NCBI RefSeq assembly: GCF_000026545.1
Contig: NC_011601.1
Direction: 5' to 3' (one strand)
From: Escherichia coli O127:H6 str. E2348/69
Lineage (GTDB): Bacteria > Pseudomonadota > Gammaproteobacteria > Enterobacterales > Enterobacteriaceae
DNA: 64,000 nucleotides
Part shown: piece by piece, positions 15,343 to 35,088 of the stretch
Numbering within the stretch: position 1 is the first letter of the stretch
Layout of the letters: each line of letters opens with the position of its first letter
Translations under genes and position numbers: made by a program
The notes under the pieces: generated by a model
Seen by the model: the letters and a program-made list of their open reading frames with translations, nothing else
Database searches by the model: none
Told to the model about the DNA's origin: nothing

Positions 15343-15859
15343 AGTCACTAAATTTCTTACAATACAATAAGTTAGGAAATAAAATCTATCTCTTTTGCCT
15401 GTAAGAAATGCTCTGTTATGTCCCTTGAAAAAGCCGCTGTGGTTGATAGTGGTAATTGGGATGTTAACTCATAGCGGCGTGTAGTTCCAAGCGTCAAACA
15501 CGTACTGACTCAACTTGAAAGCTATGACGTAGCCACCGTCTCTAAACAATCCCAAAAACTTTTAGTGAAGCGCATTTTAGCCCGATGCCCCCGTTCTGTC
15601 GCCGTCGCGAGACGCCGCAGGGGATAAACAGGTTTATGGTGGTCACGGTACTTGCAGACCATATGCAAGCTCTGCCAGCGGTTCGGCCTCGCTCCCCTTG
15701 GGTACATGGTCATCCTGATAAGCCTCACTAACTGACATAACTGTGATGTAGTCGCCAGAGGCTCCGCTTGTTGTCTTACCACCAACGGGGCTTATGACTT
15801 TTATTGTGTCAGTAAACGGCATATTATCAGTGATAGTTCAAACAGTTAGTAGGTAGAAA

Positions 15860-16408
15860 ATGAAGACCAAAAGAAAGAGCTTTGATCAATTCTTATGGCA
15901 TGATATTGATTTTGAAGATGATGCTGCAAAACAGGAAGAATACCTTGAATCTGCATTGCCACTTATTGGCCAGATTGTTATGTATTTCAATGCGCTAGAG
16001 AAAGAATTAGATAAAGTCATTTATGAAGGATTCAGCGATCGGTCAGATCAGTTAGGAATAATAATTGTGCATAACATGAATTATGCAGCAAAAGTCGAGT
16101 TATTTAGACGTCACTCCGAATTATTCCATTTGGGTGTTGGGCAGCATGTTGATATGTTTGAAGGTCTTATAAAGGATCTCAAGGAATGTGGACGGTTACG
16201 AAACATTACTGTACATGCTGACTGGGATAGCACTGATGTCGAAGGATATACATATTTAGGCATCAAAATAACTAACAATGGAATATCTCAGGAATATATC
16301 CAGTTTGACCTGGGGTCGTTGGAAAGTATCCTTCAATTGATTTTCAGTACGAGATATAAGTTGAGTGATTATTCAGACTTAAGGGGAGATATACTGGCTT
16401 CACATTAG
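15860..16408 (+). CDS. HEPN-like protein (RNxxxH motif), candidate RNase toxin/defence effector
   Basis: 182-aa, predicted helical ORF in AT-rich cargo. The motif CGRLRNITVHADW fits the HEPN R-x4-6-H (RNxxxH) signature. Confidence 0.5.
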   Translation: MKTKRKSFDQFLWHDIDFEDDAAKQEEYLESALPLIGQIVMYFNALEKELDKVIYEGFSDRSDQLGIIIVHNMNYAAKVELFRRHSELFHLGVGQHVDMFEGLIKDLKECGRLRNITVHADWDSTDVEGYTYLGIKITNNGISQEYIQFDLGSLESILQLIFSTRYKLSDYSDLRGDILASH

Positions 16409-16477
16409 TGCCATTTTTTTACTAAATAGCTAACAAATACTATCGGTAAAAGACAACATCGCAATGGTAAAGCTGCC

Positions 16478-16948
16478 GTGAAGAAGACATTGATTGATTG
16501 GATCATAGAGACTGATAACTGGACAGGAATCGCAGCGTGGGCGGGTTTCGGTTTGTCAGTATTTCAGTTAGTAAAATCAAGAACATCGCTAAGACTTTAC
16601 CTCGGGTGTGATCAGCACGAGGACAGAATATACGTTTCGAACATAAGCGCACATGATGTAACGTTGAGTGTAGCCGGTGTCGTAACAGCCAGTGGACGCC
16701 TTAGAATGCTTTCCGACGAGTATTCGGATGAGAACATGATCACACCGATGTTACCAAGAAGGTTGAAAGCACGAGACGAAATGGTCTTGAACGTGCCCTT
16801 CATAAATAAGGCTCATCACAACAAAGTGCATCATCGTGGCGGGGTGTATATCAAAACATCTGACGGCAAGATGTTCAGTGATGTTTGTTGGATTAGACGC
16901 CAATGGTGGTGGTTACTGTCTGTAATACTGCGAGACACAAAGCGATAG
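16478..16948 (+). CDS. small membrane-anchored protein, unknown function
   Basis: 156-aa ORF with a GTG start, 70 nt after the HEPN-like gene. It has an N-terminal hydrophobic helix (WTGIAAWAGFGLSVFQLV) and a Trp-rich C-terminal segment. The RBS is weak. Confidence 0.4.
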   Translation: MKKTLIDWIIETDNWTGIAAWAGFGLSVFQLVKSRTSLRLYLGCDQHEDRIYVSNISAHDVTLSVAGVVTASGRLRMLSDEYSDENMITPMLPRRLKARDEMVLNVPFINKAHHNKVHHRGGVYIKTSDGKMFSDVCWIRRQWWWLLSVILRDTKR

Positions 16949-17159
16949 GACAAGCGAGTCGCAGCTCATATGAGTGCCAACTGACATACGGCTCAGTTGG
17001 AATACTAGGATCGCGACTACGTGTTGTCTGCGAAAAACTGGGACTCAATAGATGGGTGTAGATTTAATTGATACGATCCTGTACGCGAATATTTCTCAGC
17101 ATAAATATCATCCCAGCGTCGGATTATGGTATTCAGAATGTGTGTGATGGTCTCTATCT

Positions 17160-17852
17160 TTATTCAGACCTTTTCTTCTTATCTTCCCATTCTTTTAAAG
17201 TGCTCTGATATCTTTCTTCATTTATTCTTTTTTCCTCGGTTCTGTCGCTTGAGTTGTAATTATCTGTTTTAATTTTCTTGGCTCCTTGGGATATCGGCCT
17301 CCAGTCCTCTCTAATTTTTTTCACTTGCTCGGCTATTTGTGTCATTGGACTCCTTGCTCCTAAATAGCTAACCCCCTCGAAAGAAGCCATATCATAAGAA
17401 TATTCATTGAGTTCTCTTTCTGTAGATCCGGGCTGTTTTGACCAACTGACACTAATAGAATAAATTTGATCCTTAATTTGCTCATACTTGCAGAGATTGC
17501 TGTTGAGAGAGTGTCCGTTTTTTAATACGCTGACCTTGCTAAATGGTACGCCTCTATTTTTTCTATGTTCTGCATTAACGAGAGGGGGATCAAATTCGAC
17601 CGCTATATCATAGGCTGGTGCATTTCCAGTATTAGCGATATTAATGTCAAAATAAAAAGCAGCCCAAGAGTTTGGTTCAAGAGTCACAACAACATGTGGT
17701 TGAACTGATGCGTCAACCATCCTTTTCGTTTCGTTTGCTAATAGCCTTGTTACTCTCCACAAGAAAAACGTAGCAACTGCTGTTAGCAGTGCTGCAAAAG
17801 CAGAGATCATTGTGCTTATAGTATCTATATGCTGTGTGATGAATTCGATCAT
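17160..17852 (-). CDS. single-pass membrane protein, unknown function
   Basis: I place the start at MIEFITQH (17852) behind a GAGGGAGA RBS. It has a TM helix (ISAFAALLTAVATFFLW), a beta-rich middle and a Lys/Glu-rich tail; 230 aa. Confidence 0.55.
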   Translation of the reverse strand: MIEFITQHIDTISTMISAFAALLTAVATFFLWRVTRLLANETKRMVDASVQPHVVVTLEPNSWAAFYFDINIANTGNAPAYDIAVEFDPPLVNAEHRKNRGVPFSKVSVLKNGHSLNSNLCKYEQIKDQIYSISVSWSKQPGSTERELNEYSYDMASFEGVSYLGARSPMTQIAEQVKKIREDWRPISQGAKKIKTDNYNSSDRTEEKRINEERYQSTLKEWEDKKKRSE

Positions 17853-18178
17853 TCTTCTCCCTCGAAATATAGTGCTTATTGTTATCAAAGGTAAGATAGC
17901 TCCCGGCTTGAAAAATTGCACGCTTATGGTTGCCCCTCCCTCGACGGTTAAGGCTTCAACTTCCCCCGTGCGCCTCTCCCAGCCGAAGGCTGGGCGGGCT
18001 GTATATCGATTTGCCTTCCTCTGTGGCGTTTATGACCCTGTTTCGCGTTCTTACCGTGAGGCTGTGGGTTAGGGTTACTCTTCTCTTTAAACGCTAAATC
18101 ACTCCTGAATCTCCACTGTTAAAGCACTTTGCGTTGATGCTTGGCGCTTCTCTTGGCTGTCGTTATTGTTTTGGCTTT

Positions 18179-18298
18179 GGTGTCATCAATCGTTCGATTC
18201 TTGCTACCTGTCTGAGTGATTACTATCTGGTATCATCAATTTAGGGTTTGACTAAATGCCACCACCAATGCAATGATGCTACCGTTTTGTGATACCAG
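18179..18298. repeat. res-like repeat cluster upstream of the serine recombinase
   Basis: GGTGTCATCAAT (18179-18190) and GGTATCATCAAT (18229-18240) are direct repeats 50 bp apart. CTGGTATCA (18227-18235) and TGATACCAG (18290-18298) form a 9-bp inverted repeat. Confidence 0.4.
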
Positions 18299-18314
18299 AC
18301 GGGTGAGGTGAACC

Positions 18315-18884
18315 ATGAGGACTTTTATCTACTGCCGCGTTTCAACACGCGAGCAGGATACGCAGAATCAGGTGCTGGCTATTGAGCGTGCCGGGTATAA
18401 GGTGCCGGAGAGCAGGGTAATCAGCGAGGACATTTCCGGCAGCGTTCAGGCTATGCAGCGCCCTAAGTTCCGGGCGATGGTTGAGCACAAGCTGGAAGCG
18501 GGAGATCAGCTTGTCGTGCTGAAACTGGACAGGCTGGGGCGTGACAACATCGATGTGCAGCAGACCATCGACATGCTGTTAGAACGCGGCGTGAAGGTGG
18601 TGTCTCTTGACCTGCCAGCGCGTGATCTGACTTCATCTGAGGGCAAGCTAATCCGCCAGATGTTTGGAGCCTTTGCTGAGTTCGAGCGAAACCGTATCCG
18701 TGAGAGGACGCTGGACGGGCTGGAGAAGGCGAAAGCCAATGGCGTTAAGCTGGGACGCAAGGAAGCCACCGACACCACTCAAAAGGTGCAGGAGCTGCGG
18801 AGTGAGGGGCTGTCTCAATCGAAGGTAGCGAAGCATCTCGGCGTTAGCGTGAGCACCGTTAAACGTCACTGGAACAAGGGTTAG
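18315..18884 (+). CDS. serine recombinase (resolvase/invertase family)
   Basis: 189 aa with a catalytic N-terminus (YCRVSTREQ), LDRLGR, E-helix FAEFERNRIRERT and a C-terminal HTH (LGVSVSTVKRH). RBS GAGGTG. Confidence 0.9.
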   Translation: MRTFIYCRVSTREQDTQNQVLAIERAGYKVPESRVISEDISGSVQAMQRPKFRAMVEHKLEAGDQLVVLKLDRLGRDNIDVQQTIDMLLERGVKVVSLDLPARDLTSSEGKLIRQMFGAFAEFERNRIRERTLDGLEKAKANGVKLGRKEATDTTQKVQELRSEGLSQSKVAKHLGVSVSTVKRHWNKG

Positions 18885-19439
18885 GGGTGATGACCTACAA
18901 CCAAATGAGGTGCCAGCACTGGCCGTTACTGGGCTGTGGGAGATGGATGACCTACAGCTTTTGTATTTATTTCAGAGTGTTATGTTATGCGAAATCTCGT
19001 AATGCTATGATTTATAGTGTATTTTCGTATTACTTGCGGCTCTTGATGCGAAGAGATGGCGGGGCTTTAGCCGTGCCAGACGATGAGCATCAAGATCAGA
19101 TTGTGAATGTGATTCATCACTGAACAATTCGAGGGATGGGGCAGGGGAAGGGATCAAAGGCTGCGTTGTCCAATCACTAAGCTAGATTTGAAGCTGGTCA
19201 ACACGTTAGTAGTATCTTTAAAGTCGCATTTTAAATACATGTACAAAAAAGGGTTCTTCCCCTACATCCCCTTCTCCTAATCAGTGTTATCGCTTCACGC
19301 TCACCACTGGCTGCGCTTCTCGCTGTGCTCCAGCCCACTCGATCGCCTTTGGCTCATTCCCGGTCTTCGCCTGCTGTGATGCTCGGCCACTCTACGCAAC
19401 CGTGCTTGCCGTGGCATGCAACGCGGCGGGGATGTGTAG

Positions 19440-19750
19440 TGGAACGGTACTTTTTATCTATATTATTAATTTAATCAATCACATACTGTTATCGGTAGGT
19501 ATTCTTCAAAACATCTTCATTCATTTCTGTATCGTTCAATCATCTTTCTTGTTCGTTTCCTTTCAGGTCTTAGCCGTTGGTCATTGGTCTTACTGCCCGC
19601 TGTGCTACTGCCAGCTATGGCACGCCGTCACGGTCTACTGTCTGTCACCTGTCCTACTGCGTTCACTGTCTGCCGTCTGTCATCCTGTCGGATTCCATCC
19701 GTTGACGTTCCGCGCTCGCTTGTTTCGGCTGCGCCGCGCTCGCTCTGCGT
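19440..19750. other. candidate replication origin or other cis-acting region (AT-rich tract plus short repeats)
   Basis: An AT-rich tract at 19447-19560 is followed by at least 4 copies of (C)TACTG(C/T)(C/G) at 19591, 19606, 19636 and 19655, multiple CTGTC, and CCGCGCTCGCT twice (19710, 19734). It is non-coding and lies upstream of the helicase gene. Confidence 0.35.
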
Positions 19751-20149
19751 ATCTAGCGATACTATATCACTATAGACACTTTCATAATTATATAATGATT
19801 ACAGTAACTTATGTTTTCTGTTTTAAAAGCTACTAATAAGGAGATATAGAGCATTACTTACCCGCTTTTGACCGACAAAAATCGCGTTGTTAAGTATTGC
19901 CAGCCCAGGCTCAATAAGGCTTAGCGAGGTGGTGGCTAAAAAATGAGCTAATGAAGGTATCTACTAAGGAGAAAGAATAACTCCCGAAGCGCGACAAACT
20001 CTCCGATTTTGAAAGTGACTATTAAGGCAGATAAAGACACTGACACTGTTGCTGACATGAAAACTTCTAAAAGGGCAGAGAGTCTGCCGAACCCGTACCG
20101 CTGACCCAACCTGAGCTAATACCTACCCCTATTTTCTGGAGATTTCACC

Positions 20150-21994
20150 ATGCCAACAAACCTACGCCGCCTGCTTGCGCAGGCTGCCGACGCTGACCCG
20201 CTCAATACTGCGGACGCAGATGTACAGCAAATGATCGCTGACGGGATTGTTATTCGACGTTCCAAGATATGCCCTGTAAAGCGTAAACCCGTTAAGGCGG
20301 CATACAACACAAAGACCGAAGAGTTTTATTACAATGCAGATGGCTCCGCGATGACCTTGCGGGAGTGGCGAACGCTGCACGGTGTTCAACCGAAGAAACA
20401 AAAACAGCGCTCTGACACTGGGTTGCGGCAAGTCATCCAGCCCGGCGACGCGATTCACTGCCGACGCGCTGAGATTGAGCAATGGCTTAATAAGAAGCCC
20501 GCTCGTTATGTTGACCCGCTGCCGCCAGATTTTCCCGGTGTTCGCGTAGACGATGCCGCATTGAAACCGCGCGAGCACGCCGTGCCGGAAGCGACAACCG
20601 GACAGAATGCTTTTCTCAAAGCCTGCCGCGAGTTCCTGATTTGCGATGAGAAGACCATGCGCCGTATCAGTCGGGGCATGAACCAAATGGAAGCTATGCG
20701 CAACGCAGATTTCAAACGCTACGGAGACTCAGGGGAGTTTCGTCAATTGTGGTGTGGAGAGTCGAAGCCTACCGAAGATAGATTTAATAGTTCTAATCAT
20801 CATTGTGACCCGAACGGCTTGGCTGCTTCGCCGTCTGTGCCGCCACTGAATACTGCACCGTATGAGTTCCGCCCGCTGGCTCGCTGTGACCGAAACGCAC
20901 GCGTTAGCCTGCTGCCACCTGATGGGCTGGAGTGGAGGCCGGGGCAGTTGTCTGTTGCTGATGCGATCTTTTCCCGTGGCAGTGATGTGCTTGCCGTACT
21001 GCCGACCGGGTATGGCAAAAGCGCCGCCTTCACTTATCCATTGATTTATGAGTCCCGCGCTGGCATTGGCCTGTCTGTAATCGTGGTTCCTACTAATACC
21101 CTTAAGCGTCAGATTCTCCGCCAGTTGCGGGAGGCTGGCATTCACGCTGTGGCCTTTGGCGATAAGCTACCGAGGCACCGCAACGCACAACAACTGGCGG
21201 GACTAGCAGCCGGGGCGTTCCGGGTTGCTGTTGTTTCGCCTGAACATCTGGTTCCGTCGAGTCAGGTTCTCGCGGCGCTGATGGCTTATGGCGTTGATCG
21301 TTTTATTATCGATGAGGCACACACGGTCAAAGACTGGGATTTCCGCCCAGCTTACGACGCAATGCAGCACACACTACAGAATGCTTTTCCCTCGGCTCAG
21401 CGCTGCGTGTTTACGGCTACTCTACTACGAGAAAATGAGCGCGGTTTAATGGAGGCGCTGGGATGCCGTGGCGATTACGTTACATTCCGTGCTGATGTTG
21501 CTCGCGAGAATATCCAGTTGATTCCGGTCAGGCAGTGCCGCCAGCGATACCGCGCGGCTGTTGGTCTGGTCGAGGCTCTGCCAGAGGAAGAGAAGACGCT
21601 CATTCTAGTCAATGACCTTAAGACGTTGCGGGCGTACCTGAAACTCTTCGGCGACCGGGCGCGCCCATATCACTCGAAGACGATGCACCTGAGCAACGAG
21701 GAACGCCACGCAAACGCTGAGTGGTTTGCCTCTGCGCCGGGCGCGATTCTGATTGCTACTAAAGCCTTCGGGCTGGGTGCTGATGTTCCTGATATCCGTA
21801 ACGTTGTCGTGACATACGTTCCCGATGACTTGCCTGATCTCGTTCAGATGATTGGACGAGCCGGGCGCGATGGGGAACCTGCCCGCGCTTTTCTGCTGTG
21901 GTCATCGCTGGCGCTGGATGTTGCTCCTGATGAGCTTGCTTACTTCTACCGCCCTGAAAACTGTAACTGGCAGTACATCGCTAAATACCTCTGA
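20150..21994 (+). CDS. RecQ-family SF2 DNA helicase with a ~260-aa unknown N-terminal region
   Basis: 614 aa with motif I PTGYGKS, motif II DEAH, TAT, and the RecQ-type motif VI QMIGRAGRDG. RBS TGGAG. Confidence 0.85.
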   Translation: MPTNLRRLLAQAADADPLNTADADVQQMIADGIVIRRSKICPVKRKPVKAAYNTKTEEFYYNADGSAMTLREWRTLHGVQPKKQKQRSDTGLRQVIQPGDAIHCRRAEIEQWLNKKPARYVDPLPPDFPGVRVDDAALKPREHAVPEATTGQNAFLKACREFLICDEKTMRRISRGMNQMEAMRNADFKRYGDSGEFRQLWCGESKPTEDRFNSSNHHCDPNGLAASPSVPPLNTAPYEFRPLARCDRNARVSLLPPDGLEWRPGQLSVADAIFSRGSDVLAVLPTGYGKSAAFTYPLIYESRAGIGLSVIVVPTNTLKRQILRQLREAGIHAVAFGDKLPRHRNAQQLAGLAAGAFRVAVVSPEHLVPSSQVLAALMAYGVDRFIIDEAHTVKDWDFRPAYDAMQHTLQNAFPSAQRCVFTATLLRENERGLMEALGCRGDYVTFRADVARENIQLIPVRQCRQRYRAAVGLVEALPEEEKTLILVNDLKTLRAYLKLFGDRARPYHSKTMHLSNEERHANAEWFASAPGAILIATKAFGLGADVPDIRNVVVTYVPDDLPDLVQMIGRAGRDGEPARAFLLWSSLALDVAPDELAYFYRPENCNWQYIAKYL

Positions 21995-22031
21995 GTCGAA
22001 AGGCTCTCCCTGATTCTCTGGAGTTAATCAT

Positions 22032-22469
22032 ATGCCTGTTACCGAACATGCGCAGCGTCGTGCTGCGCGTGCGGATGCGCTCATCACCGCACAACTAGCC
22101 TTTGCCCTGAATGGGTACAACTGGGATGAACTGGCCGAACCTCATCGCAAGACCCTTAATCGTGAGGCCATCATTCGCGAGGTATCTACACCGCTGGAGC
22201 GATATTGCCTGCTGAATGATTGCGAGCCGTGGGAGTGTCTGGCCGCTGTACTGAACCGCATGAAAAGGCCGGATGGCTCGCGTCGCTGGAAAGCCGTCCG
22301 GTTGTCCGACCGGGTTTTCAATGGCCGGGTGCATCCAGTGCGCAAGACTCCTGATGAAGTTTACGCCGCCATTGCCCGCCGCTTGTTCCTGCCGAAGCCT
22401 GTGCATCAAGAAGTGATACAGCACATCCGTGCGCTTGGCTTGTTACCAGTTGGAGATAACCACCAATGA
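22032..22469 (+). CDS. hypothetical protein (island operon)
   Basis: 145 aa with RBS TGGAG 8 nt upstream; its stop overlaps the next start (ATGA). Confidence 0.6.
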   Translation: MPVTEHAQRRAARADALITAQLAFALNGYNWDELAEPHRKTLNREAIIREVSTPLERYCLLNDCEPWECLAAVLNRMKRPDGSRRWKAVRLSDRVFNGRVHPVRKTPDEVYAAIARRLFLPKPVHQEVIQHIRALGLLPVGDNHQ

Positions 22470-22675
22470 CGAAATCTGAATTTGAAAATGAAACATGGCG
22501 AATGAAGGGCTTGCTTCTTGGGGCGCTGATTCGCCGCCTTGAGGAAGATAAGGCTGGCGAGTCGCGCATGGTCGCAGCGGAGTTATCCAGTGCGGTCAAC
22601 TTCCTTAAGGCCAACGCCGTAGAAGCGCCGGACACATCATTCAACAACGTGTTCCCGGAGGATGACGAACAATGA
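22466..22675 (+). CDS. hypothetical protein (island operon)
   Basis: 69 aa with ATGA overlaps at both ends. Confidence 0.55.
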   Translation: MTKSEFENETWRMKGLLLGALIRRLEEDKAGESRMVAAELSSAVNFLKANAVEAPDTSFNNVFPEDDEQ

Positions 22676-22848
22676 CCCCTGAACAATTCAGACAATGGTT
22701 CGCCACGCTGCCACCGAACTATCAGAGCGCCGCACGCACCATGTACGACAACGCCCGCAAGTCGGGCATACATACCGCGTCAAGCCTTGCGCTGATTCAC
22801 ACGTTGGTTACTGACCAGATCAAATTTGATTCGGAGTTTAATTTATGA
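22672..22848 (+). CDS. hypothetical 58-aa protein (below the ORF-track cutoff)
   Basis: Hand translation gives MTPEQFRQWFATLPPNYQSAARTMYDNARKSGIHTASSLALIHTLVTDQIKFDSEFNL. ATGA overlaps with both neighbours fill the gap in the coupled chain. Confidence 0.5.
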   Translation: MTPEQFRQWFATLPPNYQSAARTMYDNARKSGIHTASSLALIHTLVTDQIKFDSEFNL

Positions 22849-23408
22849 CTTTGAGTATTACCGATATCCAGCGCATTAACGCGCTGGCTCATAAGCACCT
22901 AAAGAACAATGAAGAGATTGCAGCGGAGACAGGTCATACCCTGACCGATATTGACGCTGTAATCCGTGGCGTCTATGTCGATGACTTGGCCGAACATTGG
23001 AAAGACGATGCTGATATTACTCTGGCGGAGTACAACGCCATCCGCAGCCGCTATAAGCCCGGCAAGTTGCACCGCGATACAGAGTTTATGATTGCCCGCG
23101 ATATGCTGATTCGCCCTGAGACTGTGCTGGCTATCGCCCATTCCCGCTTTAGCAACGTCCACACGCACCCAGTGCCGAAAGCCGTCAAAGCAAAGCCGGA
23201 GAAAGCGAAAGTAGTGCGCAAGTTAGTGCTTACTGATTTAGATGAAATCCACAAGTTAGAGCGCTTCGGTTGGCCTGCTGCGGAGATCGCCGGGAAGCTG
23301 GGCGTCCCTGTTGAGGTCGTCGCGCATGTGCAACGCTGCCTGAGAAATCGTTGGTCGTACCCGGATACTCTGGAGTCTGTTAACTCCAAATTCAGCGAGG
23401 CTGAATGA
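22845..23408 (+). CDS. hypothetical protein with a probable C-terminal HTH
   Basis: 187 aa. The C-terminal segment WPAAEIAGKLGVPVEVVAHVQRCL looks HTH-like. Translationally coupled to its neighbours. Confidence 0.6.
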   Translation: MTLSITDIQRINALAHKHLKNNEEIAAETGHTLTDIDAVIRGVYVDDLAEHWKDDADITLAEYNAIRSRYKPGKLHRDTEFMIARDMLIRPETVLAIAHSRFSNVHTHPVPKAVKAKPEKAKVVRKLVLTDLDEIHKLERFGWPAAEIAGKLGVPVEVVAHVQRCLRNRWSYPDTLESVNSKFSEAE

Positions 23409-23641
23409 TGGCAGAGAACGAACCGCTGCACCCCGCCGTTAACCCTGATCTCTACGTGAACCTTGACGAACAACGCGAAGGATACGCTCCGATTGAATCA
23501 CAGGGTTGGGATGTGCTGACGCAGAACCTGACCGGGAAAGGTCGAACTGACCCCAGCCAAACACTTAACCAGAATCCGAAACAACGCCCGCACGGCTCCG
23601 TTGGTGAGCGTCGTTGGCTTCGTAAACGTGGATTACTTTAA
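23405..23641 (+). CDS. hypothetical protein
   Basis: 78 aa with an ATGA overlap with the upstream gene. Confidence 0.5.
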   Translation: MMAENEPLHPAVNPDLYVNLDEQREGYAPIESQGWDVLTQNLTGKGRTDPSQTLNQNPKQRPHGSVGERRWLRKRGLL

Positions 23642-23653
23642 CGAGGAATTACC

Positions 23654-23893
23654 ATGAGCAAAACTATCGTATTGCTGCCGCCCCGCAAGAATACAGACTG
23701 GGCTGCACAATTAAAGCTGATTTCTGAATCGCTTGAGGTGAGTCAGGCAGACCTCGCCCACGCCTATCAGGTTGATCGTCGGGATATGGGTAAAGCGTAT
23801 CACGGTGTGCGCAAACTGCCGGAGCGTTGTGTGCCTGTTCATATGCTGTTGTTAGCGCAGGTACACGACTTTAGAGCATTATCAGGAGAATAA
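23654..23893 (+). CDS. small HTH-like protein
   Basis: 79 aa, RBS GAGGA. The segment LEVSQADLAHAYQVDRRDMGKAYHG resembles an XRE-type HTH. Confidence 0.55.
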   Translation: MSKTIVLLPPRKNTDWAAQLKLISESLEVSQADLAHAYQVDRRDMGKAYHGVRKLPERCVPVHMLLLAQVHDFRALSGE

Positions 23894-23896
23894 TTT

Positions 23897-24577
23897 ATGT
23901 CTGACCAGAATGTTAATCCGTACCTTTCCGGTGCTGATGCTGCATCGCAGCAATCGCCATACATGGCTGCACCTGTTGGCGCTGACAATGGCGCATCCCG
24001 CTTTAGCTCTGTGCCTGCTGATGCTGATTTCCTCCGTACCCAGCCCGTTAACGGTAATGATGGCGGCCAATGGAATAATGGCAGTATCGCGAATCAGCAG
24101 GATCAGAACGCTGACAGCGCCGGGGCGCAGGTGGGCGATACTATCTCCCTGATGGATGGAACAGCTATTGAGTACACCGCCGAGCTGCAAGGATTGATGG
24201 GGCAGTTTCACCAGTCTGTCGAAAGCCAGCTAGGGCAGGGGACAGTTGACGCTATGTTGCAGTACGCTGGCACGCTCGACGCCGGGACGCAATCGACCCT
24301 TGAACGGATGGTTATGTCTGGCGACCCTGCGCAGATGCAGCGGGCGGTTCAGTATCTGCAAGAGCGTATGGCTGGCGGTTCCATTACCGGTTACGTCCCG
24401 AACGGCCAGACTGCCGCGCAACCTGTCGGAATGTCACATGCTGAGTTTATAGCAGCGTATGACCAGCTTTCGCAGTGGGCGCAGCAATCAGGGTATGGCC
24501 CCGGCCATCGCCAGTACGACGAACAATACCGTGCTCTGGTTGCGCAGCGCTCCGCTGGCAAACGTGCTGGTCGCTAA
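23897..24577 (+). CDS. Gln/Ala/Gly-rich protein in the scaffold position (candidate capsid assembly/scaffolding protein)
   Basis: 226 aa, RBS AGGAG. It has a low-complexity N-terminal half and a helical C-terminal half, and lies upstream of the capsid-like gene. Confidence 0.45.
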   Translation: MSDQNVNPYLSGADAASQQSPYMAAPVGADNGASRFSSVPADADFLRTQPVNGNDGGQWNNGSIANQQDQNADSAGAQVGDTISLMDGTAIEYTAELQGLMGQFHQSVESQLGQGTVDAMLQYAGTLDAGTQSTLERMVMSGDPAQMQRAVQYLQERMAGGSITGYVPNGQTAAQPVGMSHAEFIAAYDQLSQWAQQSGYGPGHRQYDEQYRALVAQRSAGKRAGR

Positions 24578-24716
24578 CGCCCAACGGTGGAATGCGCCCT
24601 GCAAGACTGAGTGCGCACCAACCCGGTACTACCACACCAATCTAAGCGCATGAGTCCCCGCAAGCCGCATTCTGCGCGGCATCTGAAAGCCTGTTTTTAA
24701 TTAACCGAGGTTCGTA

Positions 24717-25130
24717 ATGAGTACCTGTAATTTCCATGCCGTGGTGCGTGTCGCTGACGTGCGCCCGGATTTCGCCTTGCCGCTGGGTAGATGCGACCAC
24801 ATTTACCCTGAGCGTGTGCAGCACGTTTTCAATCCAGACGAAGCGGTTTATATCGTTGCCCGGTCTGCCACATCCGGCACCCGCACATCTGGCGTTAGCC
24901 GTGGGCTTTCCCCTGTGCTGCCGCCGAAGATGGCCGAGCGGATGCGCGAACGTGAACGGCACGAGAAAAACCGAGTCAGACCCCGCAAGGTGATCACTGA
25001 GGCGATACGCGCTGACATTATCGATCGCTCTGCAAAAGGTCAGAAGAATCGTTACATTGCAAGCAAGGTTGGTGTGTCTGAAACCTCTGTGCGGAAGGTG
25101 TTGAACATGGCGCGTATGAGTGCGCACTAG
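24717..25130 (+). CDS. DNA-binding protein with a C-terminal HTH (regulator or small-terminase-like)
   Basis: 137 aa, RBS GAGG. The C-terminus NRYIASKVGVSETSVRKVLN resembles a resolvase-type HTH. Confidence 0.55.
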   Translation: MSTCNFHAVVRVADVRPDFALPLGRCDHIYPERVQHVFNPDEAVYIVARSATSGTRTSGVSRGLSPVLPPKMAERMRERERHEKNRVRPRKVITEAIRADIIDRSAKGQKNRYIASKVGVSETSVRKVLNMARMSAH

Positions 25131-25349
25131 TGCAAGGTAATACGTTCACCTTACTTCACGCGCACTAACCCCTGAGAACCGTGCCAGCTCTGGCCTCAAA
25201 ACGCCCATTTCGGGGCACCTCATTCCTCTTAATCGATACCGTTCTGAATCCTGCCTCGGCGGGAGGATTACGCACGCCCGCGCCATGACGATGGCCGGGC
25301 CTATCTCGTCAGTGAATCCGCTGGCACAACCTACGTAGGAGTTTTACAT

Positions 25350-26345
25350 ATGGCCGATAACATTTACTCGCCTGACCAGTTCCGCCCACATTATGGCGGG
25401 GTGGAATCTGACAATGATATTCACATCGAGGCTTATGACCGGGATGTCCAGACCCGTTTAGAGTCCAAATCCGTATTTCTGGCCGAGGGGCTGTCTACAT
25501 ACAGGCCGCTGAAAGCCAGCAACCAATATCGTGTTGATCGCCTGAGTGGTGATCTGGAGGTGAAGGGCAGAACCGCAGGGCAATCGCTGGAGCCTACCGC
25601 TGTTAAGTCGGATAAGCTGATTATCTCTGTGGATACGCTGAGTTATATCCGCATCCCGATTGACTATCAGGATGACTGGACAGCACCCACCTTTCGCTCA
25701 GAGCTGAGCCGCAATATCGGTACTGCTCACGCTAAATTCTACGACGAAGCGCACACCATCCAGCTAATCAAAGCGACTGACTTTGTACCGCCGCCGACGT
25801 TGCAACCAACGTTTAACCCGCTGACGGATAATGTTGTCTCGCTCGACCTGACAGCGGGGAGCGAAGAGGACGCCGCAAACGAATTGTCTCACGCCGTAAA
25901 AGCGGCTGCTAATCGCTTTCTCACTGAGAAAGATATTCCGGTGGCCGAGCTGGTACTGCTTATCGACCCGGCTTGGTTCAGCATCCTGATGGAACATAAG
26001 AAGCTGATGAACATCCGTTACAGCCGGGATAGTGGCAACGATTACGCATGGCGTCGAGTTGGCTATGTCGCTTGGGTACGAGTCATTGAGCTGAACAGTT
26101 ACCCGCAGGGAGCCATTACCGCGCATGAACTGGGCGCTGATTATAATGTGACCGCAGGGGAAGCGCTGACACGGGCGACGCTGTTCCGGCCTGCGTCTGT
26201 ACTTGTGACAGTCGAAGCGCAGAGCGTCATCAATCGCCAGTGGGATGAGGAACGCGAAATGACAATGGTGATGGACTCATATCGCCTGTTCAATGTTGGG
26301 CTGCGCCGCCCGGACTGCGTTATCAATTTCCGACAAGCTGCATAA
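25350..26345 (+). CDS. major capsid protein, T7 gp10-like (HK97 fold, no delta domain)
   Basis: 331 aa, RBS AGGAG. Block-wise resemblance to my recollection of T7 gp10A: FRSELSRNIGTAHA / VRSEYTSQLGESLA, LLIDPAWFSIL / FYCDPDSYSAIL, and C-terminal FNVGLRRPDCVINF / AMGHGGLRPEAAGAVVF. Confidence 0.55.
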   Translation: MADNIYSPDQFRPHYGGVESDNDIHIEAYDRDVQTRLESKSVFLAEGLSTYRPLKASNQYRVDRLSGDLEVKGRTAGQSLEPTAVKSDKLIISVDTLSYIRIPIDYQDDWTAPTFRSELSRNIGTAHAKFYDEAHTIQLIKATDFVPPPTLQPTFNPLTDNVVSLDLTAGSEEDAANELSHAVKAAANRFLTEKDIPVAELVLLIDPAWFSILMEHKKLMNIRYSRDSGNDYAWRRVGYVAWVRVIELNSYPQGAITAHELGADYNVTAGEALTRATLFRPASVLVTVEAQSVINRQWDEEREMTMVMDSYRLFNVGLRRPDCVINFRQAA

Positions 26346-26361
26346 CTGGAGGGGCTGAGTC

Positions 26362-26871
26362 ATGGTTAATGATGCTTACGCCCCTGAGCTGTTGCGATCC
26401 CTTTTCCTGTATGACCCGGTGACAGGTCGCCTGCACCATAAAGCTAGCCGATGCCGGGTTACGGCTGGCTCCTATGCTGACTCCACCCGGCGAGCTGATG
26501 GCTATCGTCAAGTTGCCCTGCGACTGGATGGCAAGCAGTACCAGCTAAAAGCCCATCGCGTAGCGTGGATTCTTGCGCATGGTGCTATTCCCCACGGTAT
26601 GCAGATCGATCACATCAACGGTACCCGTGACGATAACCGCTTATGCAATCTGCGATTGGTTACGCAGCGGGAAAACGACCAGAACCGACGCAAGGCAAGG
26701 GGGTATAGCTGGAATAAGGGCTGTAGCAAATGGGAGGCTTACATACGCGTTGGTGGTGTACTCCGTCACCTTGGCTTATTCACATCCGAAGCGGCAGCTC
26801 GTGCTGTGTACCTGAAAGCTAAAGCCAGATACCACCCCTCAACGCCTGACGATTTATTGCAGGCTGCCTAA
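26362..26871 (+). CDS. HNH homing-type endonuclease with an AP2 DNA-binding domain
   Basis: 169 aa with HRVAWILAHGAIPHGMQIDHINGTRDDNRLCNLRLVT (HNH_3 type) followed by WNKGCSKWEAYIRVGGVLRHLGLFTSEAAA (AP2-like). Confidence 0.8.
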   Translation: MVNDAYAPELLRSLFLYDPVTGRLHHKASRCRVTAGSYADSTRRADGYRQVALRLDGKQYQLKAHRVAWILAHGAIPHGMQIDHINGTRDDNRLCNLRLVTQRENDQNRRKARGYSWNKGCSKWEAYIRVGGVLRHLGLFTSEAAARAVYLKAKARYHPSTPDDLLQAA

Positions 26872-26889
26872 CCCTCGGAGGTTCCATTA

Positions 26890-27315
26890 ATGGCTGATGA
26901 AAAGCCGATTAGGTCGCTGGCAGGTGATGACCCACGCCGCCAGCAGTACGCCGAACTGTTGGCGCAGGCTAGCCGCATGACTATTCCCCGGCTGCATCCG
27001 GGCGATGCTAACAGTGTGATGAGTCAGCTTGCAACGATGCTTGGCGCACCTGTCCCGATAGTCGGTGCTATGACTGAGCACGCCGCTGCATGGCGTGCCT
27101 GTCTGCTTGAGCAAGGACTTGGCGAGCTTCTGGATGGCTTGAGTAAACAGGTGCTGACCATCTTCTTTCTGCTCTGCTGGAGAGACAGCGCCTTGCGATT
27201 GGCTGGTAAGCAAAAGAAACGGCTTACAGCCGCCAGCGAGGGTTTGACCATTGAGCAATACCGGGCAATGCACCCGGCTTACAGAGAGGATAAAGAACAT
27301 GATAACCACGATTAA
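26890..27315 (+). CDS. hypothetical protein
   Basis: 141 aa, RBS GGAGG 8 nt upstream. Confidence 0.55.
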   Translation: MADEKPIRSLAGDDPRRQQYAELLAQASRMTIPRLHPGDANSVMSQLATMLGAPVPIVGAMTEHAAAWRACLLEQGLGELLDGLSKQVLTIFFLLCWRDSALRLAGKQKKRLTAASEGLTIEQYRAMHPAYREDKEHDNHD

Positions 27316-27598
27316 ATTAAGGTGGCGGTACATCGAGACGCCGCCAATGACTGGCGCACTCGCTGACCTGAAACAGTGGGTAATGAATGCCGTAGAGCCT
27401 GAGCTTGAGGCTGAATTTCGTAAGCTGCTGGGGCAGATGCGTCGCAATGGTATCAGTGATGGGCGCGTAAATGCGGTGGCTGATGAGCTTTATGCTCTGG
27501 TATGCCAACGCCAGCGCGAAGAATACGAAGCCTGCAAGCGGGCTGCCTCTGACAATGGAGACTTTGAATCATGGTTACACGGACAGACCAGCTACTAA
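27299..27598 (+). CDS. hypothetical protein
   Basis: I prefer the start at MITTIKLRW (27299), which has RBS AGAGAGGA upstream, over the track start at 27251. 99 aa. Confidence 0.5.
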   Translation: MITTIKLRWRYIETPPMTGALADLKQWVMNAVEPELEAEFRKLLGQMRRNGISDGRVNAVADELYALVCQRQREEYEACKRAASDNGDFESWLHGQTSY

Positions 27599-27996
27599 GA
27601 AAAGCTATGAGGGGCTATCTGGAACACCTTGGCAACATGCCGCTGGCGGAACGGATTACAAATGCTGCTGTATTCGAAGATGTGTATCGCTTTTTGTTGA
27701 ATGGTTCCGGGCGGCTGGAGCTGCGCCGCGCTGACGTGGCTGCCGTCCGTGTCTTCCTTTGGAACTATCAATACCGCCGCTGTGCTGTGACAGGTAAGCC
27801 GCTGCGCCTTGCGTCTGCCGTTCTGGATCACTGCCACCGAACCGGGCGCGTGCGTGCTGTGGTGCATCGTTCTGCTAACGCTGCTGAGGGAGGCCGCTAC
27901 GTTGGGCGGACGTGTGGTGTTAGCGTTACGAATCTAAGGGCTATGATTGGCAGCTATCGCAAGCAATACACTGGTATTGGCATGTTATATCCATAA
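27571..27996 (+). CDS. endonuclease VII-family (HNH-like) nuclease
   Basis: 141 aa. CAVTGKPL...VLDHCHRTGRVRAVVHRSANAAEG resembles the Endonuclease_7 motif (C-x2-C ... DH-x-H-x-TG-x-VRG..C..CN..G). Confidence 0.6.
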   Translation: MVTRTDQLLRKAMRGYLEHLGNMPLAERITNAAVFEDVYRFLLNGSGRLELRRADVAAVRVFLWNYQYRRCAVTGKPLRLASAVLDHCHRTGRVRAVVHRSANAAEGGRYVGRTCGVSVTNLRAMIGSYRKQYTGIGMLYP

Positions 27997-28037
27997 CTGC
28001 GGGGTAATAAACCCCGCCGAAATAGTAGCGTAGCCAC

Positions 28038-28940
28038 TCAAACAGGAATGTTGTAGTAATGACAAATTGCATTAGTTAGTAGAGCTGGTGCAGCAGACGC
28101 TGCAATATTTAGCGTCCCCGCATATGCTTTACCAATCATATTTACAACCCACTTCCCAAGGCTATCACTGAAATTGTCCGGGGTAGTTGGGGCGGGTGAT
28201 TCTTGTATAGCTTGATGAAGGCTCTTAATATCTTCATCATTAGCGCCCCAATCCTTGAGCTGCTTTTCAAGCGAGTTGAAGTCTCCAGCGTTGACAGTAT
28301 TATTTTGTGAAATGTCCCCGTTACCAGAGCCAATAACGCCAGCATTGTTTACGTTGCCATGAATGTTGGTCACGTTATGGACAGTCATTGGCGCTACCTC
28401 TTTTTCTCTTAATGAAAACTGTAACCCTTCGCCTAAAATACCCTTTGACTCTAAGTCTAAAGACCAGTCGAGGATCTTATTCCTAACGGTAGTAATTACA
28501 TGTTCTAGTACACCAGCGCTTATAACCCATACCATCTCAGTCTTTTGTCCGATACTTTGAGCTAATGTATCAGCCATCCAATCCGGGAGAGGTAAAAAAG
28601 GGTTTTCTCCTTTATTGCTCATCTTTTTTATAGATGATATTGATTCTGTAATGTGAAACGTTGATACCATTGCATTTAATTCCGCGTCGTTGAAGTTGAC
28701 CACAAGCGGAACCCAGCTCTGATGTTGGGGACTATATGCTTTTAACTGCGATTGACCTTTCCTGTATTCAGGAACCGTATCAAAGCTGGGATAGCCATTT
28801 AATTCGAGCTGTATCCACTCGGTCAAATCGCTGAGGCCGAGCTTCACTGCAATCATTTTGGCCTTCATGAGTACAGATAAAATGTCGGAGTCGGGATCGC
28901 ACGCTAGTGCTTGAAGTTCAAGAACTGGTGAGTTAGCCAT
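28038..28940 (-). CDS. AbiTii-like abortive-infection family protein
   Basis: 300 aa. The N-terminus LELQALACDPDSDILSVLMKAKMIAVKLGLSDLTEWIQLELNGY matches the AbiTii N-terminal pattern as I recall it. It lies adjacent to the integrase. Confidence 0.55.
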   Translation of the reverse strand: MANSPVLELQALACDPDSDILSVLMKAKMIAVKLGLSDLTEWIQLELNGYPSFDTVPEYRKGQSQLKAYSPQHQSWVPLVVNFNDAELNAMVSTFHITESISSIKKMSNKGENPFLPLPDWMADTLAQSIGQKTEMVWVISAGVLEHVITTVRNKILDWSLDLESKGILGEGLQFSLREKEVAPMTVHNVTNIHGNVNNAGVIGSGNGDISQNNTVNAGDFNSLEKQLKDWGANDEDIKSLHQAIQESPAPTTPDNFSDSLGKWVVNMIGKAYAGTLNIAASAAPALLTNAICHYYNIPV

Positions 28941-29027
28941 ATCAAGACCTTAGTATTGTTTTGATAAGGTATCTTACCCGCATCGAACCATGCAGTCTAA
29001 GGTTCGCAGGCCAAACTCACCCATGAG

Positions 29028-30239
29028 TTAGATGTTTATTCCTTCATGCTGGATGAGTTCGACATACTTACCGATCTCTATAGGGGAAGCTGCATTTTTC
29101 GAGTAAGTTTTGAAGCTCTCTGTACTCCCGCGCTCATGACCGACGAGCAGGGCAATACGATCTTCTGGCACTTGAGCACGGTCGAGCTGTTGCACAAAAG
29201 CATGGCGGAGTGAGTGAAACACTTTTCTCTCTGCGGCAGGCTCGCCAAGAGCTTTACGCTTTGCTCGCGTGAATTGCTGCGTATGCCACGTTGAGCGCTT
29301 CCCATCGGCCCGGTCTGTTATTGATGCGTGATAGAACAGAAAACCGCTATGTGTGGTCTTGAGCAATGACTTCACGAGAGGGATTATCTTGCTGTGTACA
29401 GGGACGATTCGCGCCGCGCTCTTAGTCTTCCCCTCGGTGATCTCAAAGCACAATATACCCTCGATAGTTTTAATACTGCTTTCACGTAGCGTACATATCT
29501 CATTGATCCGCATACCGCTGTATGCACCAATAGCCGTTACCGCCTTCATCTCGTCATCAAGCAAGGCATAGACCTTTGCCAGCTCTCCCGGTGCGAAGAC
29601 TTCATAGCTGACCTTGCTGCTTTTTGCTTCGAGCGCATGACCGCGCCAAGGATTGTCCTGTGGTGCATCGTGATAGCGATTGCGTGCCAGATCCCATATC
29701 TGCGCCAGTGCGCTTATATAGTTTTGGATAGTTTGGGGCGCTCGCTCAGTTTTGAGCTTATCTAACCAGCCTGTAACTATGGTTCGGTTAATATCCCGCA
29801 ACTGAACATCTTTCTTTTTCAAGTGGGTTAACAGCACCTCTACGGCTTTGTTGGTCTTGGATAACGTGGTTAGCTTTCGCTTCTCGCTGTATTGAAGCAG
29901 GTACAAATCACGCATTTTTAGCAAGGAAGGGCAAGCCTGAATCGATGCACCAAACGATGCGGGGGCTTCCTTGGCGTACACACTGACACGGCGTAGCTCA
30001 TCAATGATTTGGTCTACAGATGAGCCGCCTTGTGGCTTTAGCAGATTCCGTAAGCGAGTCCATTCCAGAGCAATAGCATCTCGAAACAATCGCGCTTGGC
30101 GTATGTCTCGTGTTCCTGTGCTTTTCATAAAGTAGCGCTTCCCTTGGAACAGGTGGCGCATATAGCTGGGAATAGCTATCCGCACGAGGTAATTCCCGCA
30201 GGGATCTAAAACTAGATAACGATCTCTCTTGAAACTCAT
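29028..30239 (-). CDS. tyrosine-type site-specific integrase
   Basis: 403 aa with a catalytic set consistent with R (SGMRINEI), HSLRH, LVGH and a C-terminal Y (FKTYSKN). Its start lies 133 nt from attR. Confidence 0.9.
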   Translation of the reverse strand: MSFKRDRYLVLDPCGNYLVRIAIPSYMRHLFQGKRYFMKSTGTRDIRQARLFRDAIALEWTRLRNLLKPQGGSSVDQIIDELRRVSVYAKEAPASFGASIQACPSLLKMRDLYLLQYSEKRKLTTLSKTNKAVEVLLTHLKKKDVQLRDINRTIVTGWLDKLKTERAPQTIQNYISALAQIWDLARNRYHDAPQDNPWRGHALEAKSSKVSYEVFAPGELAKVYALLDDEMKAVTAIGAYSGMRINEICTLRESSIKTIEGILCFEITEGKTKSAARIVPVHSKIIPLVKSLLKTTHSGFLFYHASITDRADGKRSTWHTQQFTRAKRKALGEPAAERKVFHSLRHAFVQQLDRAQVPEDRIALLVGHERGSTESFKTYSKNAASPIEIGKYVELIQHEGINI

Positions 30240-30372
30240 ACAAACCCCGGTTATGTTGTCGGGGCTTTTTCATGGCTAAACAGTCTGTGAAATGTGCCGG
30301 GGTCATGAGCTTTAGTCTAGCTAGTTCAACAAGTTAACGATGATTGTTGAAGCAAGCTAAGTCGCTATAACC

Positions 30373-30403
30373 CGTGCCGGTTCGAGTCCGGCCTTCGGCA
30401 CCA
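30373..30403 (+). repeat. attR core: displaced copy of the leuX 3' end
   Basis: Exact 31-bp copy of 15312-15342, with no upstream tRNA body. Confidence 0.9.
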
Positions 30404-30419
30404 CATCGTATGCAAATCG

Positions 30420-30443
30420 AGTCGCTCAAGGGCGGCTTTTTTT
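30420..30443 (+). terminator. probable native leuX rho-independent terminator, now at attR
   Basis: Hairpin agtcgc (30420-30425) / gcggct (30432-30437, one G-U pair) followed by T7, 17 nt after the repeated CCA end. Confidence 0.65.
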
Positions 30444-30627
30444 GTGTCTGGGATCCATTAGTTACCTATCTTTCTCGCTATTTTAACTCTCTCAGAGCCA
30501 ACCAATTTCAACCCATCGCAAACGAAAAATGTTGGTACAGGCGTTGGTATTTTCGGTTCGATATTAATTTGTATTAGCTCAGTCCTGATCTGACAGCTAT
30601 CTGCCAGATCAGGTTCGGATTAATACA

Positions 30628-33865: not shown

Positions 33866-35088
<1,223 letters not shown>

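Follow-up and report, generated by a model that had tools for sequence, protein, structure and literature searches.

A conserved 15-kb island at leuX of Escherichia coli O127:H6 with a phiKMV-type capsid gene: a probable member of an undescribed satellite family of virulent phages

The DNA analysed here is a 64,000-nucleotide stretch of Escherichia coli O127:H6 str. E2348/69 (assembly GCF_000026545.1, contig NC_011601.1), referred to below as the window, and the leuX region within it houses a mobile element of 15,061 bp (15343–30403) bounded by attachment (att) sites. The tRNA-Leu(CAA) gene leuX (15258–15342, plus strand) was located with ARAGORN and the Rfam tRNA model. A direct-repeat search placed attL in the 3′ 31 bp of this gene (15312–15342) and attR at 30373–30403 on the plus strand, where the same 31 bp recur without a mismatch. 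A tyrosine integrase gene (29028–30239, minus strand; PF00589, E=1e-16; phrog_1) lies at the far end from tRNA-Leu; an integrase had been listed in the first-pass annotation of this sequence. The element is discrete, att-bounded and integrase-carrying, and the tRNA was the sole match in an Rfam scan of the island. Its G+C content is 41–46% in the left cargo region versus 53–58% in the core. Most of the core is a train of 14 plus-strand open reading frames (ORFs) between 20150 and 27996 in the ORF list, which had been described as tightly coupled; neighbouring ORFs are indeed separated by gaps of 3–37 bp or overlap by 4–65 bp, with four junctions being 4-bp overlaps, and the two wider gaps, of 139 bp and 219 bp, flank a variable 137-aa helix-turn-helix (HTH) ORF. 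The conserved core comprises 16 genes, 15 of which are present in every island examined, the remaining one being the position-conserved and sequence-variable ORF upstream of the capsid gene.

The 331-aa product of 25350–26345 (plus strand; WP_000774673) is an HK97-fold major capsid protein of the Autographiviridae, of phiKMV/Bonnellvirus type. The protein matched the PHROGs family phrog_267, ‘major head protein’ (E=3e-64), and gave full-length matches to capsid proteins of solved structure in the PDB, 23sf_I (E=9e-78), 8eld_A (E=4e-73) and 8vb0_A (E=3e-57). A total of 753 phage records matched, headed by the Bonnellvirus coliphages Lidtsur, forsur, glasur and J8-65; identity to these and to related Kosakonia, Cronobacter, Pantoea and Enterobacter phages was 54–56%, with 56% as the maximum. 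All of the capsid-related phages are Autographiviridae of 41–44 kb with a phiKMV-type gene order. The first-pass annotation had aligned this protein block by block with gp10A of phage T7; the blocks are in register with the best BLASTP alignment, which reproduces two of them. The HK97-fold assignment stands, but gp10A is a remote relative (22% identity over 165 aa, E=0.02). Since the phiKMV-like phages are closer and the scaffold family described below showed no similarity to gp9, T7 gp10A and gp9 were set aside as the relevant relatives.

The capsids of the islands are 90–94% identical to one another as compared with 56% for the nearest phages, and IMG/VR contained no intermediates between 90% and 56% identity. 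They are monophyletic and form a clade of their own. In a deep-branching relative of the island (locus L118), the capsid is 57–59% identical to island capsids and at most 52% identical to any phage capsid; being nearer to the former, it indicates that the island capsids constitute an old clade. The ratio of nonsynonymous to synonymous substitution rates (dN/dS) of the capsid gene, 0.10, was the lowest of the core train.

Upstream of the capsid gene, 23897–24577 (plus strand) encodes a 226-aa protein that we assign, by homology, to the scaffolding proteins of phiKMV-like phages. Hidden Markov models (HMMs) were made for each island core family from 12 islands and searched against 9,803 ORFs of 79 phiKMV-like phage loci, and the model of the 226-aa family matched 47 phage ORFs at E<1e-3. 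The matches that were inspected sit between the portal and capsid genes, next to the capsid gene on its upstream side unless an HNH gene has been inserted there, and a scaffold gene upstream of the capsid gene was seen in every phage locus examined. The HMM match consists of the last ~65 residues and reaches the C-terminus of island and phage proteins alike. Comparison with 17 diverse phage scaffolds using hhalign scored 97.7% (E=2.4e-12) across the C-terminal ~100 residues, with the alignment again running to the last residues. In the scaffolds of tailed phages, this region is the coat-binding end. The N-terminal half is family-specific, and the island protein measures 226 aa versus 259–411 aa for the phage scaffolds. 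Its gene has a dN/dS of 0.117, the next lowest after the capsid gene in the core train. The earlier proposal of a scaffold at this position is borne out by these matches, with the difference that the family gave no match to T7 gp9. Neither the scaffold nor the terminase-like protein described next yielded anything meaningful against PDB sequences.

A 69-aa ORF at 22466–22675 (plus strand) encodes a truncated counterpart of the small terminase (TerS) of the T7 group, the gp18 or DNA maturase A type, and is homologous to its N-terminal half. It matched PF11123, the T7 gp18-type DNA packaging protein, at E=3e-4, which is below the cut-off, and this model was matched by seven of eight family members. 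The TerS of Lidtsur was the sole match of the family HMM among the 9,803 phage ORFs (E=1.7e-4), and hhalign of the family against five phage TerS proteins scored 95.0% (E=3.6e-8, columns 12–53). The shared motif reads RM-AAELS--V-FLK-N in the islands and P(L/M)-AA(E/D)-S----FLKDN in the phage TerS consensus. Of the phage protein, ~100 aa long, the last third is missing from the island ORF, and the dN/dS of its gene (0.127) is the third lowest in the core train.

Two predicted nucleases, both recognized in the first-pass annotation, are encoded downstream of the capsid gene: a 169-aa HNH endonuclease of the homing-endonuclease type (26362–26871, plus strand; PF13392, E=2e-18; phrog_99, E=3e-53) and a 141-aa endonuclease VII-type protein (27571–27996, plus strand; PF02945, E=4e-6; phrog_423, E=1e-15). 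The HMM of the endonuclease VII family matched 59 phage ORFs at E<1e-3, and hhalign against the Lidtsur endonuclease scored 97.8%. In a subset of Klebsiella-type phiKMV-like phage contigs (L057, L069, L072, L074, L077, L086, L087, L089 and L094 in our collection), homologues of the HNH protein (E down to 2e-36) separate the scaffold gene from the capsid gene. Such insertion is typical of homing endonucleases, and the island enzyme might target the same scaffold–capsid locus of a helper phage.

In order to examine phage ancestry without preselection, 20 island families were compared with 55 gene families of Lidtsur using hhalign (1,100 comparisons). The only pairs to exceed 85% were the capsid (100%), endonuclease VII (97.8%), the scaffold (93.7%, E=2e-7) and TerS (87.6%, E=3.5e-6). 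The next pair, between the core protein p145 (22032–22469) and a 63-aa ORF of Lidtsur (L012, 39251–39442) that sits downstream of the large terminase gene, reached 60.8% (E=8e-5, 29 columns) and is not significant alone given the number of comparisons. Taken together, the homologies assign a phiKMV-phage ancestry to the capsid, the short scaffold, the truncated small terminase, the HNH protein and endonuclease VII. The eight other conserved genes of the core train have no homologue in Lidtsur. Searches with Pfam, PHROGs, blastn-short and the Lidtsur screen revealed no homologue of the portal, large terminase (TerL), tail, core protein, RNA polymerase or DNA polymerase in the island. The initial statement that portal, terminase and tail genes are missing therefore holds for the portal, TerL and tail, but had overlooked the truncated TerS homologue; the accompanying idea that the element supplies only its own coat protein has to be abandoned, as the short scaffold, the TerS-like protein and both nucleases also have phiKMV-like homologues.

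Of 5,426 complete E. coli genomes, 59 carry a single copy of the core, and at least 80% of it is present in 54 of these. The same gene order was found in genomes of Trabulsiella, Enterobacter, Kluyvera and Kosakonia, and protein searches extended the family to Klebsiella, Citrobacter, Cronobacter and Phytobacter; overall, about ten enterobacterial genera besides Escherichia are represented. The copies occupy tRNA-Leu, tRNA-Gly and at least one other att site, with integrases there that are 38–40% identical. An origin as a deletion remnant would have been indicated, according to the first-pass annotation, by homologous segments always embedded in full-length prophages; among the copies found, none lay inside a prophage or was accompanied by additional phage genes. 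Median pairwise dN/dS was 0.10–0.27 for all 14 genes tested (13 of the core train and the integrase), and all core genes tested are under purifying selection. The deep-branching relative L118, a 7.3-kb contig from Logan accession SRR27227106, keeps the core genes that fall within its length at 30–57% identity, with p79 unmatched, and nearly retains their order, the HNH gene having moved to a position after the p141 and p115 homologues; its capsid gene is split by a frameshift, either real or an assembly error, and another copy (L017) is also frameshifted. Two E. coli copies are visibly altered. That of strain UTME-7 (L112; 13,163 bp, at tRNA-Gly) is decayed, a deletion having removed the 3′ half of the capsid gene together with HNH and p141, and that of LT883142 (L110; 16,437 bp) carries an insertion of the insertion sequence (IS) ISSen4. 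A candidate relative from a Methylotenera metagenome-assembled genome (L011) was rejected as a piece of an ordinary phage, in which genes for portal, scaffold, capsid and tail tube are all present. On the basis of the recurrence across genera, the several att sites, the dN/dS values, the L118 relative and the monophyly of the capsids, we conclude that the element is maintained and is not a deletion remnant.

The size of the island is also conserved, at close to 14.8 kb. Among 18 att-bounded copies measured, the 16 intact ones span 14,471–15,400 bp, and the two outside the range of 14.5–15.4 kb are the UTME-7 deletion and the ISSen4-bearing copy; a survey for a module of constant length, about 15 kb, had been recommended in the first-pass annotation, and this is what it returned. 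Four further att-bounded contigs measure 14.1–15.1 kb. Across the 18 copies, the left cargo varies from 3.2 to 5.8 kb and the right cargo from 1.35 to 3.7 kb, and the two lengths are inversely correlated (Pearson r=-0.80, p=6e-5, a p-value made optimistic by kinship among the islands). A fixed total length combined with a trade-off between the two bays is the pattern that a capsid-capacity limit predicts. A compact and conserved size is typical of classical satellites, according to a 2025 commentary by Penades (PMC12772148). Relative to the genome of a related phage, taken as a stand-in for the helper, the ratio of satellite to helper is 14.8/42.3 kb, or 0.35, in keeping with the initial estimate of about one third of a T7-like genome. 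The same ratio of 0.35 holds for P4 and P2 (11.6/33.6 kb) and for SaPI1 and 80alpha (15.2/43.8 kb), in which heads with a triangulation number (T) of 4 are made from a T=7 helper.

The variation in length resides in two cargo bays that are filled mostly with predicted anti-phage genes. The first, a region of low G+C at 15343–18314, contains ORFs at 15860–16408 and 16478–16948 (both plus strand) and at 17160–17921 (minus strand), none of which had a Pfam or PADLOC match. The last of these matched phrog_11802 over its full length (E=6e-127), which places this protein in genomes of phages or prophages as well; a hydrophobic segment is predicted at its N-terminus, and a homologue with 87% identity is carried by a Kosakonia island (L009). 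In other islands this bay holds genes for DUF3800, TIR, Rap1a and other proteins. The second bay encodes an AbiTii abortive-infection protein (28038–28940, minus strand; PF18864, E=4e-44; PADLOC AbiTii, E=2e-48), and in other islands is either empty or contains a restriction-modification (R-M) system, a Dcm methylase, a YafO toxin or a TIR protein whose domain is of the ThsB type. Defence cargo in hotspots is known for P4 and PICI satellites (PMC9122126), and the leuX site is the most occupied defence hotspot of E. coli (PMC12707154). To the right of attR, at 30404–42500, we observed a second defence cluster that is without an integrase. It consists of a type I R-M system (hsdR at 30628–33744, followed by hsdS and by hsdM up to 36645), a DUF4942 gene, McrBC (38147–41508), a phosphorothioate-DNA-dependent restriction endonuclease (41571–42500) and an HNH pseudogene, after which come the nan and fim operons.

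The remainder of the core begins with a serine recombinase of the resolvase/invertase type (18315–18884, plus strand; PF00239, E=8e-37; phrog_125), found at the same position in all islands (L003–L010 compared) as one of two alleles, ~97% or 26–35% identical to the window copy. It is followed by ~1.2 kb without a convincing gene (18885–20149) that is conserved between islands. An alignment of 23 islands, in which 55–83% of the columns are conserved, resolved at least two sequence types of this region; the best-conserved block is 19360–19450. The ori-like repeats noticed previously are present as imperfect ACTGTCTGxC direct repeats at 19588–19687, flanked by A+T-rich segments at 19440–19540 and 19770–19830; the part of that claim that concerns an origin is an interpretation, and we regard 18885–20149 as a candidate origin or regulatory region.

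The first gene of the train encodes a 614-aa superfamily 2 (SF2) helicase with a RecQ-like core at residues 261–588 (20150–21994, plus strand; PF00270 and PF00271). The RecQ-type designation given to it earlier is sustained by TIGR00614 (E=6e-41), although the match is below the family cut-off. Relatives of its N-terminal 260 residues were found in these islands only; searches of this domain returned no distant homologues, and the AlphaFold2 (AF2) model was unusable (pLDDT 38). PADLOC profile PDLC02858 (‘DpdF’) matched residues 112–614 (E=2e-277). Identity with DpdF of the Dpd system was rejected, because the NCBIfam DpdF model gave 124 bits where its cut-off is 550, and because the island contains none of the other dpd genes; it seems that PDLC02858 was built from the present island family, so that mis-annotation is possible. 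Next are p145 (22032–22469, plus strand), which is in all islands, has a dN/dS of 0.155 and matched no family in Pfam, PHROG or NCBIfam, and, beyond the TerS-like ORF, the small conserved protein p58 (22672–22848, plus strand). p187 (22845–23408, plus strand) is predicted to bind DNA through three tandem HTH-like modules, based on weak HTH matches and an AF2 model (pLDDT 78) with three three-helix modules; its family is confined to these islands, and no specific fold relative could be accepted, with generic tandem-HTH matches only, at template-modelling (TM) scores of about 0.2. Recognized by synteny and dN/dS were the small conserved proteins p78 (23405–23641) and p79 (23654–23893), the latter with two allele types, and, beyond the HNH gene, the conserved proteins p141 (26890–27315) and p115 (27251–27598; the RefSeq start at 27299 gives 99 aa), all on the plus strand. 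The variable ORF just upstream of the capsid gene, p137 (24717–25130, plus strand), encodes a small HTH protein (HTH_23, E=4e-4) with a weak match to phrog_836, ‘late transcriptional activator’ (E=1.4e-3). Its position is the one variable slot inside the fixed core, and unrelated ORFs of 87–158 aa occupy it in other islands (9057–9404 in L013, 9057–9320 in L114 and 11172–11645 in L108). A scan of 18800–28100 found two sigma-70-like promoters versus 7.1±2.8 expected from shuffled sequences, both on the minus strand, and none facing the 14-gene train.

Full-text searching of the literature, with the E2348/69 genome paper outside its scope, found no description of the element. The commentary, of December 2025, lists P4, phage-inducible chromosomal islands (PICIs), capsid-forming PICIs (cf-PICIs), the PICI-like elements (PLEs) and a jumbo-phage satellite, and considers many families to be still unexplored (PMC12772148). 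Judged by its gene content, the present element is assigned to none of the P4-like, classical PICI, cf-PICI, PLE or PICMI groups, which agrees with the initial impression that its gene set is unlike those of P4, PICI/cfPICI and PLE. Hallmarks were sought with Pfam and PHROG on all island ORFs and with NCBIfam on ten core proteins. None of the P4-like hallmarks (Sid/Psu/Delta, the alpha primase-helicase, AlpA/Cox-like regulators) was found, the SF2/RecQ-like helicase being the sole replication-type protein, and homologues of Sid, Psu, Delta, alpha-primase, CpmA and CpmB were likewise not found in the island. Classical PICIs combine an integrase with an AlpA or Stl-type regulator, Pri-Rep (primase and replication initiator) and a packaging module of TerS, Ppi or Rpp; of these, the integrase is present, and AlpA, primase and the PriCT and D5_N domains were not found. 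Classical PICIs are without a capsid gene, whereas the present element has one, and its TerS-like fragment is of the T7 gp18 type.

The cf-PICIs resemble the element in being integrative, ~15 kb in size, equipped with their own major capsid protein and presumed satellite-sized heads, dependent on a helper for the other parts, spread over several genera and furnished with accessory or defence cargo. They encode a full head and packaging set, with an HK97-type capsid, portal, protease, connectors, TerS and in some cases TerL, and steal only the tails of temperate siphophages (10.1101/2022.09.08.507074; PMC13612085). In contrast, the head and packaging genes of the element are limited to those for a coat, a scaffold and part of a TerS, all of Autographiviridae type, with no portal, protease, connector, AlpA or primase; portal, protease and adaptor were absent from the Pfam and PHROG results, and the helicase is the only ORF of portal length. 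With the Staphylococcus aureus pathogenicity islands (SaPIs) and P4, the element shares a genome of ~35% of that of the helper and a satellite-encoded scaffold-type protein. SaPIs and P4 use the helper coat, whereas the element brings its own, and Sid, an external scaffold, has no relationship to the scaffolds of phages. CpmB mimics the C-terminus of the 80alpha scaffold, and the short scaffold of the element retains the presumed coat-binding C-terminal region of a phage scaffold in much the same way.

The PLEs of Vibrio cholerae, which parasitize ICP1, and the PICMIs of Vibrionaceae resemble the element in having a presumed virulent helper, nucleases, interference with packaging and an integrated, host-protecting island. 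PLE has no capsid gene and remodels the ICP1 coat with TcaP (PMC10945586), and PICMI has no capsid gene and uses full-size heads (PMC10803314). Their gene sets are unrelated to that of the element, their hosts are Vibrionaceae where those of the element are Enterobacteriaceae, and their helpers are myo- or schitoviruses, not Autographiviridae. Beyond the integrase, the PLE (RepA, TcaP, NixI) and PICMI (int-alpA-fis-primase) cores had no PHROG or Pfam counterpart in the island, PLE-specific profiles not being searched directly. The phiKMV-like phages (Lidtsur, J8-65, LIMEzero, KP34, phiKMV) share with it the capsid, the scaffold C-terminus, the TerS N-terminus, endonuclease VII, HNH and the scaffold-then-capsid order. 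Unlike these virulent phages of 41–44 kb, the element is integrated, 15 kb long and without RNA and DNA polymerase, primase-helicase, portal, tail tube A/B, internal core, TerL or lysis genes; the Autographiviridae hallmarks of Lidtsur (RNA and DNA polymerase, portal, tail tubular A/B, core, TerL) had no counterpart in the island.

Three features generally expected of a satellite are present: an integrase and att sites of its own, an incomplete virion set with genes that interface with morphogenesis, and a compact, conserved size. We consider that the element is probably a member of an undescribed satellite family of virulent phiKMV-like phages. The presumed helpers would most likely be phiKMV-like Autographiviridae of enterobacteria, whose nearest known relatives, judged by the capsid, are the Bonnellvirus/Waewaevirus group. 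In the scheme that we propose, the integrated element would be largely silent, with no sigma-70-like promoter facing its train, until infection by a helper led to integrase-driven excision. Replication might then start ahead of the helicase gene, where iterons and A+T-rich sequence are found, with the SF2 helicase, p187 and the serine resolvase involved. The coat and short scaffold of the element would assemble small procapsids, probably T=4, on the portal and core of the helper, and the TerS-like protein could steer the helper large terminase to satellite DNA or block the helper TerS. Endonuclease VII may trim branched DNA for packaging, HNH may cut helper DNA, and helper tails would complete the particle. 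A more detailed version of this scheme, which we put forward tentatively and at somewhat less than an even chance, would make the family the first satellites of T7-superfamily (Autographiviridae) podophages and a coat-and-scaffold-only hijacker. It would make small, probably T=4, heads from a capsid/scaffold pair of its own, acquired long ago, with portal, core and tail stolen from the helper, use a truncated TerS to steer or jam the helper terminase, and carry swappable anti-phage cargo across at least ten enterobacterial genera, the reference enteropathogenic strain E2348/69 included, with an HNH enzyme that may cut the helper scaffold–capsid locus.

Several observations weigh against a satellite lifestyle. 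Excision, replication, packaging, transfer and the identity of the helper are all deduced from sequence. A degenerate pattern for the attP junction, whose predicted form is GAAGCAAGCTAAGYCGC(N5)CCCGTGCCGGTTCGAGTCCGGCCTTCGGCACCANGTCAYTAAA, gave zero matches in IMG/VR and JGI metagenome contigs; all 22 metagenome contigs with the right end of the island show an integrated attR, and the two IMG/VR contigs with the element include chromosomal flanks. Logan contigs of ~15 kb were considered as free circles and rejected, since they are att-bounded in the integrated order and an assembly break at the 31-bp repeat explains their size. The element was not found in GenBank phage records, and outside the capsid gene no DNA similarity to phage records was detected, including by blastn-short; as the capsid itself reaches only 56%, no specific helper can be named, and the fit of so diverged a coat to the portal, core and tail of a helper is uncertain. 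The helicase, of SF2/RecQ type with an uninterpretable N-terminal domain, is unlike known satellite initiators, and no primase was found in the island with the Pfam, PHROG and NCBIfam scans described above. Neither a phage-RNA-polymerase promoter nor a pac site was recognized, and Lidtsur did not yield a recurring motif that resembles a promoter. Finally, the islands that enter the size correlation are phylogenetically related.

An unlikely alternative, though the best of those considered, is that the island, spreading by some other route, serves defence only, the capsid, scaffold and TerS being dominant-negative mimics of phiKMV-like head assembly and packaging that are never encapsidated, and HNH and endonuclease VII cutting phage DNA. 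The known defence genes on both flanks (AbiTii, R-M, ThsB-type TIR, YafO) and the location in the top defence hotspot of E. coli (PMC12707154) fit such a role, as do the absence of an excised form from IMG/VR and JGI contigs and a TerS homologue that lacks its C-terminal third, as an inhibitor might; interference by structural proteins is known for tails (PMC11364771). A decoy, however, leaves unexplained the constancy of 14.5–15.4 kb and the trade-off between the bays, as well as a helicase, an ori-like region and a resolvase in the invariant core. Moreover, a full-length, constrained coat together with a scaffold whose coat-binding end is intact resembles an assembly-competent pair rather than a poison, and interference can coexist with satellite transfer.

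Less probable still is that three copies of the element are packaged in normal helper heads, with no small capsids being formed and the coat and scaffold having some other role, for instance to mark or bias assembly. At 3 × 14.8 = 44.4 kb, a trimer would fill a T=7 capsid, the element being almost exactly one third of the related phage genomes of 41–44 kb, and concatemer packaging in full-size heads has been reported for PICMI satellites (PMC10803314). The conserved coat and the shortened scaffold would then have no evident purpose as a pair. Packaging in the T7 group is site-specific and not headful, so that a one-third rule would be less obviously enforced. We give very little weight to the reading that a temperate Autographiviridae-like prophage lost its portal, terminase and tail, and that what is left of it, domesticated or in decay, persists as a passive island: five core genes are of phiKMV-phage ancestry and decayed copies exist (UTME-7 with half of its capsid gene, HNH and p141 gone, and the L017 and L118 frameshifts), but one reduced gene set, constant in order and size, is found again and again in many genera and at three att sites with no copy having extra phage genes, core dN/dS is 0.10–0.27, a relative at 30–57% identity keeps nearly the whole set, and eight other conserved core-train genes have no homologue in Lidtsur.

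Known satellites use the helper coat (P4, PICI, PLE), full-size heads (PICMI) or a whole head kit of their own (cf-PICI), and the enterobacterial families exploit temperate phages. If the satellite interpretation is correct, an element that brings only a coat, a scaffold and part of a terminase, all from a virulent T7-family lineage, would supply an intermediate so far missing among satellite designs and would extend satellites to podophages that are common in phage therapy and biotechnology. The interpretation lends itself to testing, as E2348/69 is widely held and the candidate helpers (Lidtsur, other ‘sur’ phages and J8-65) grow on E. coli K-12. The family would also offer a natural system for learning how coat and scaffold together determine the T-number when the portal is a foreign one, and could explain the movement of part of the leuX defence hotspot from genus to genus.

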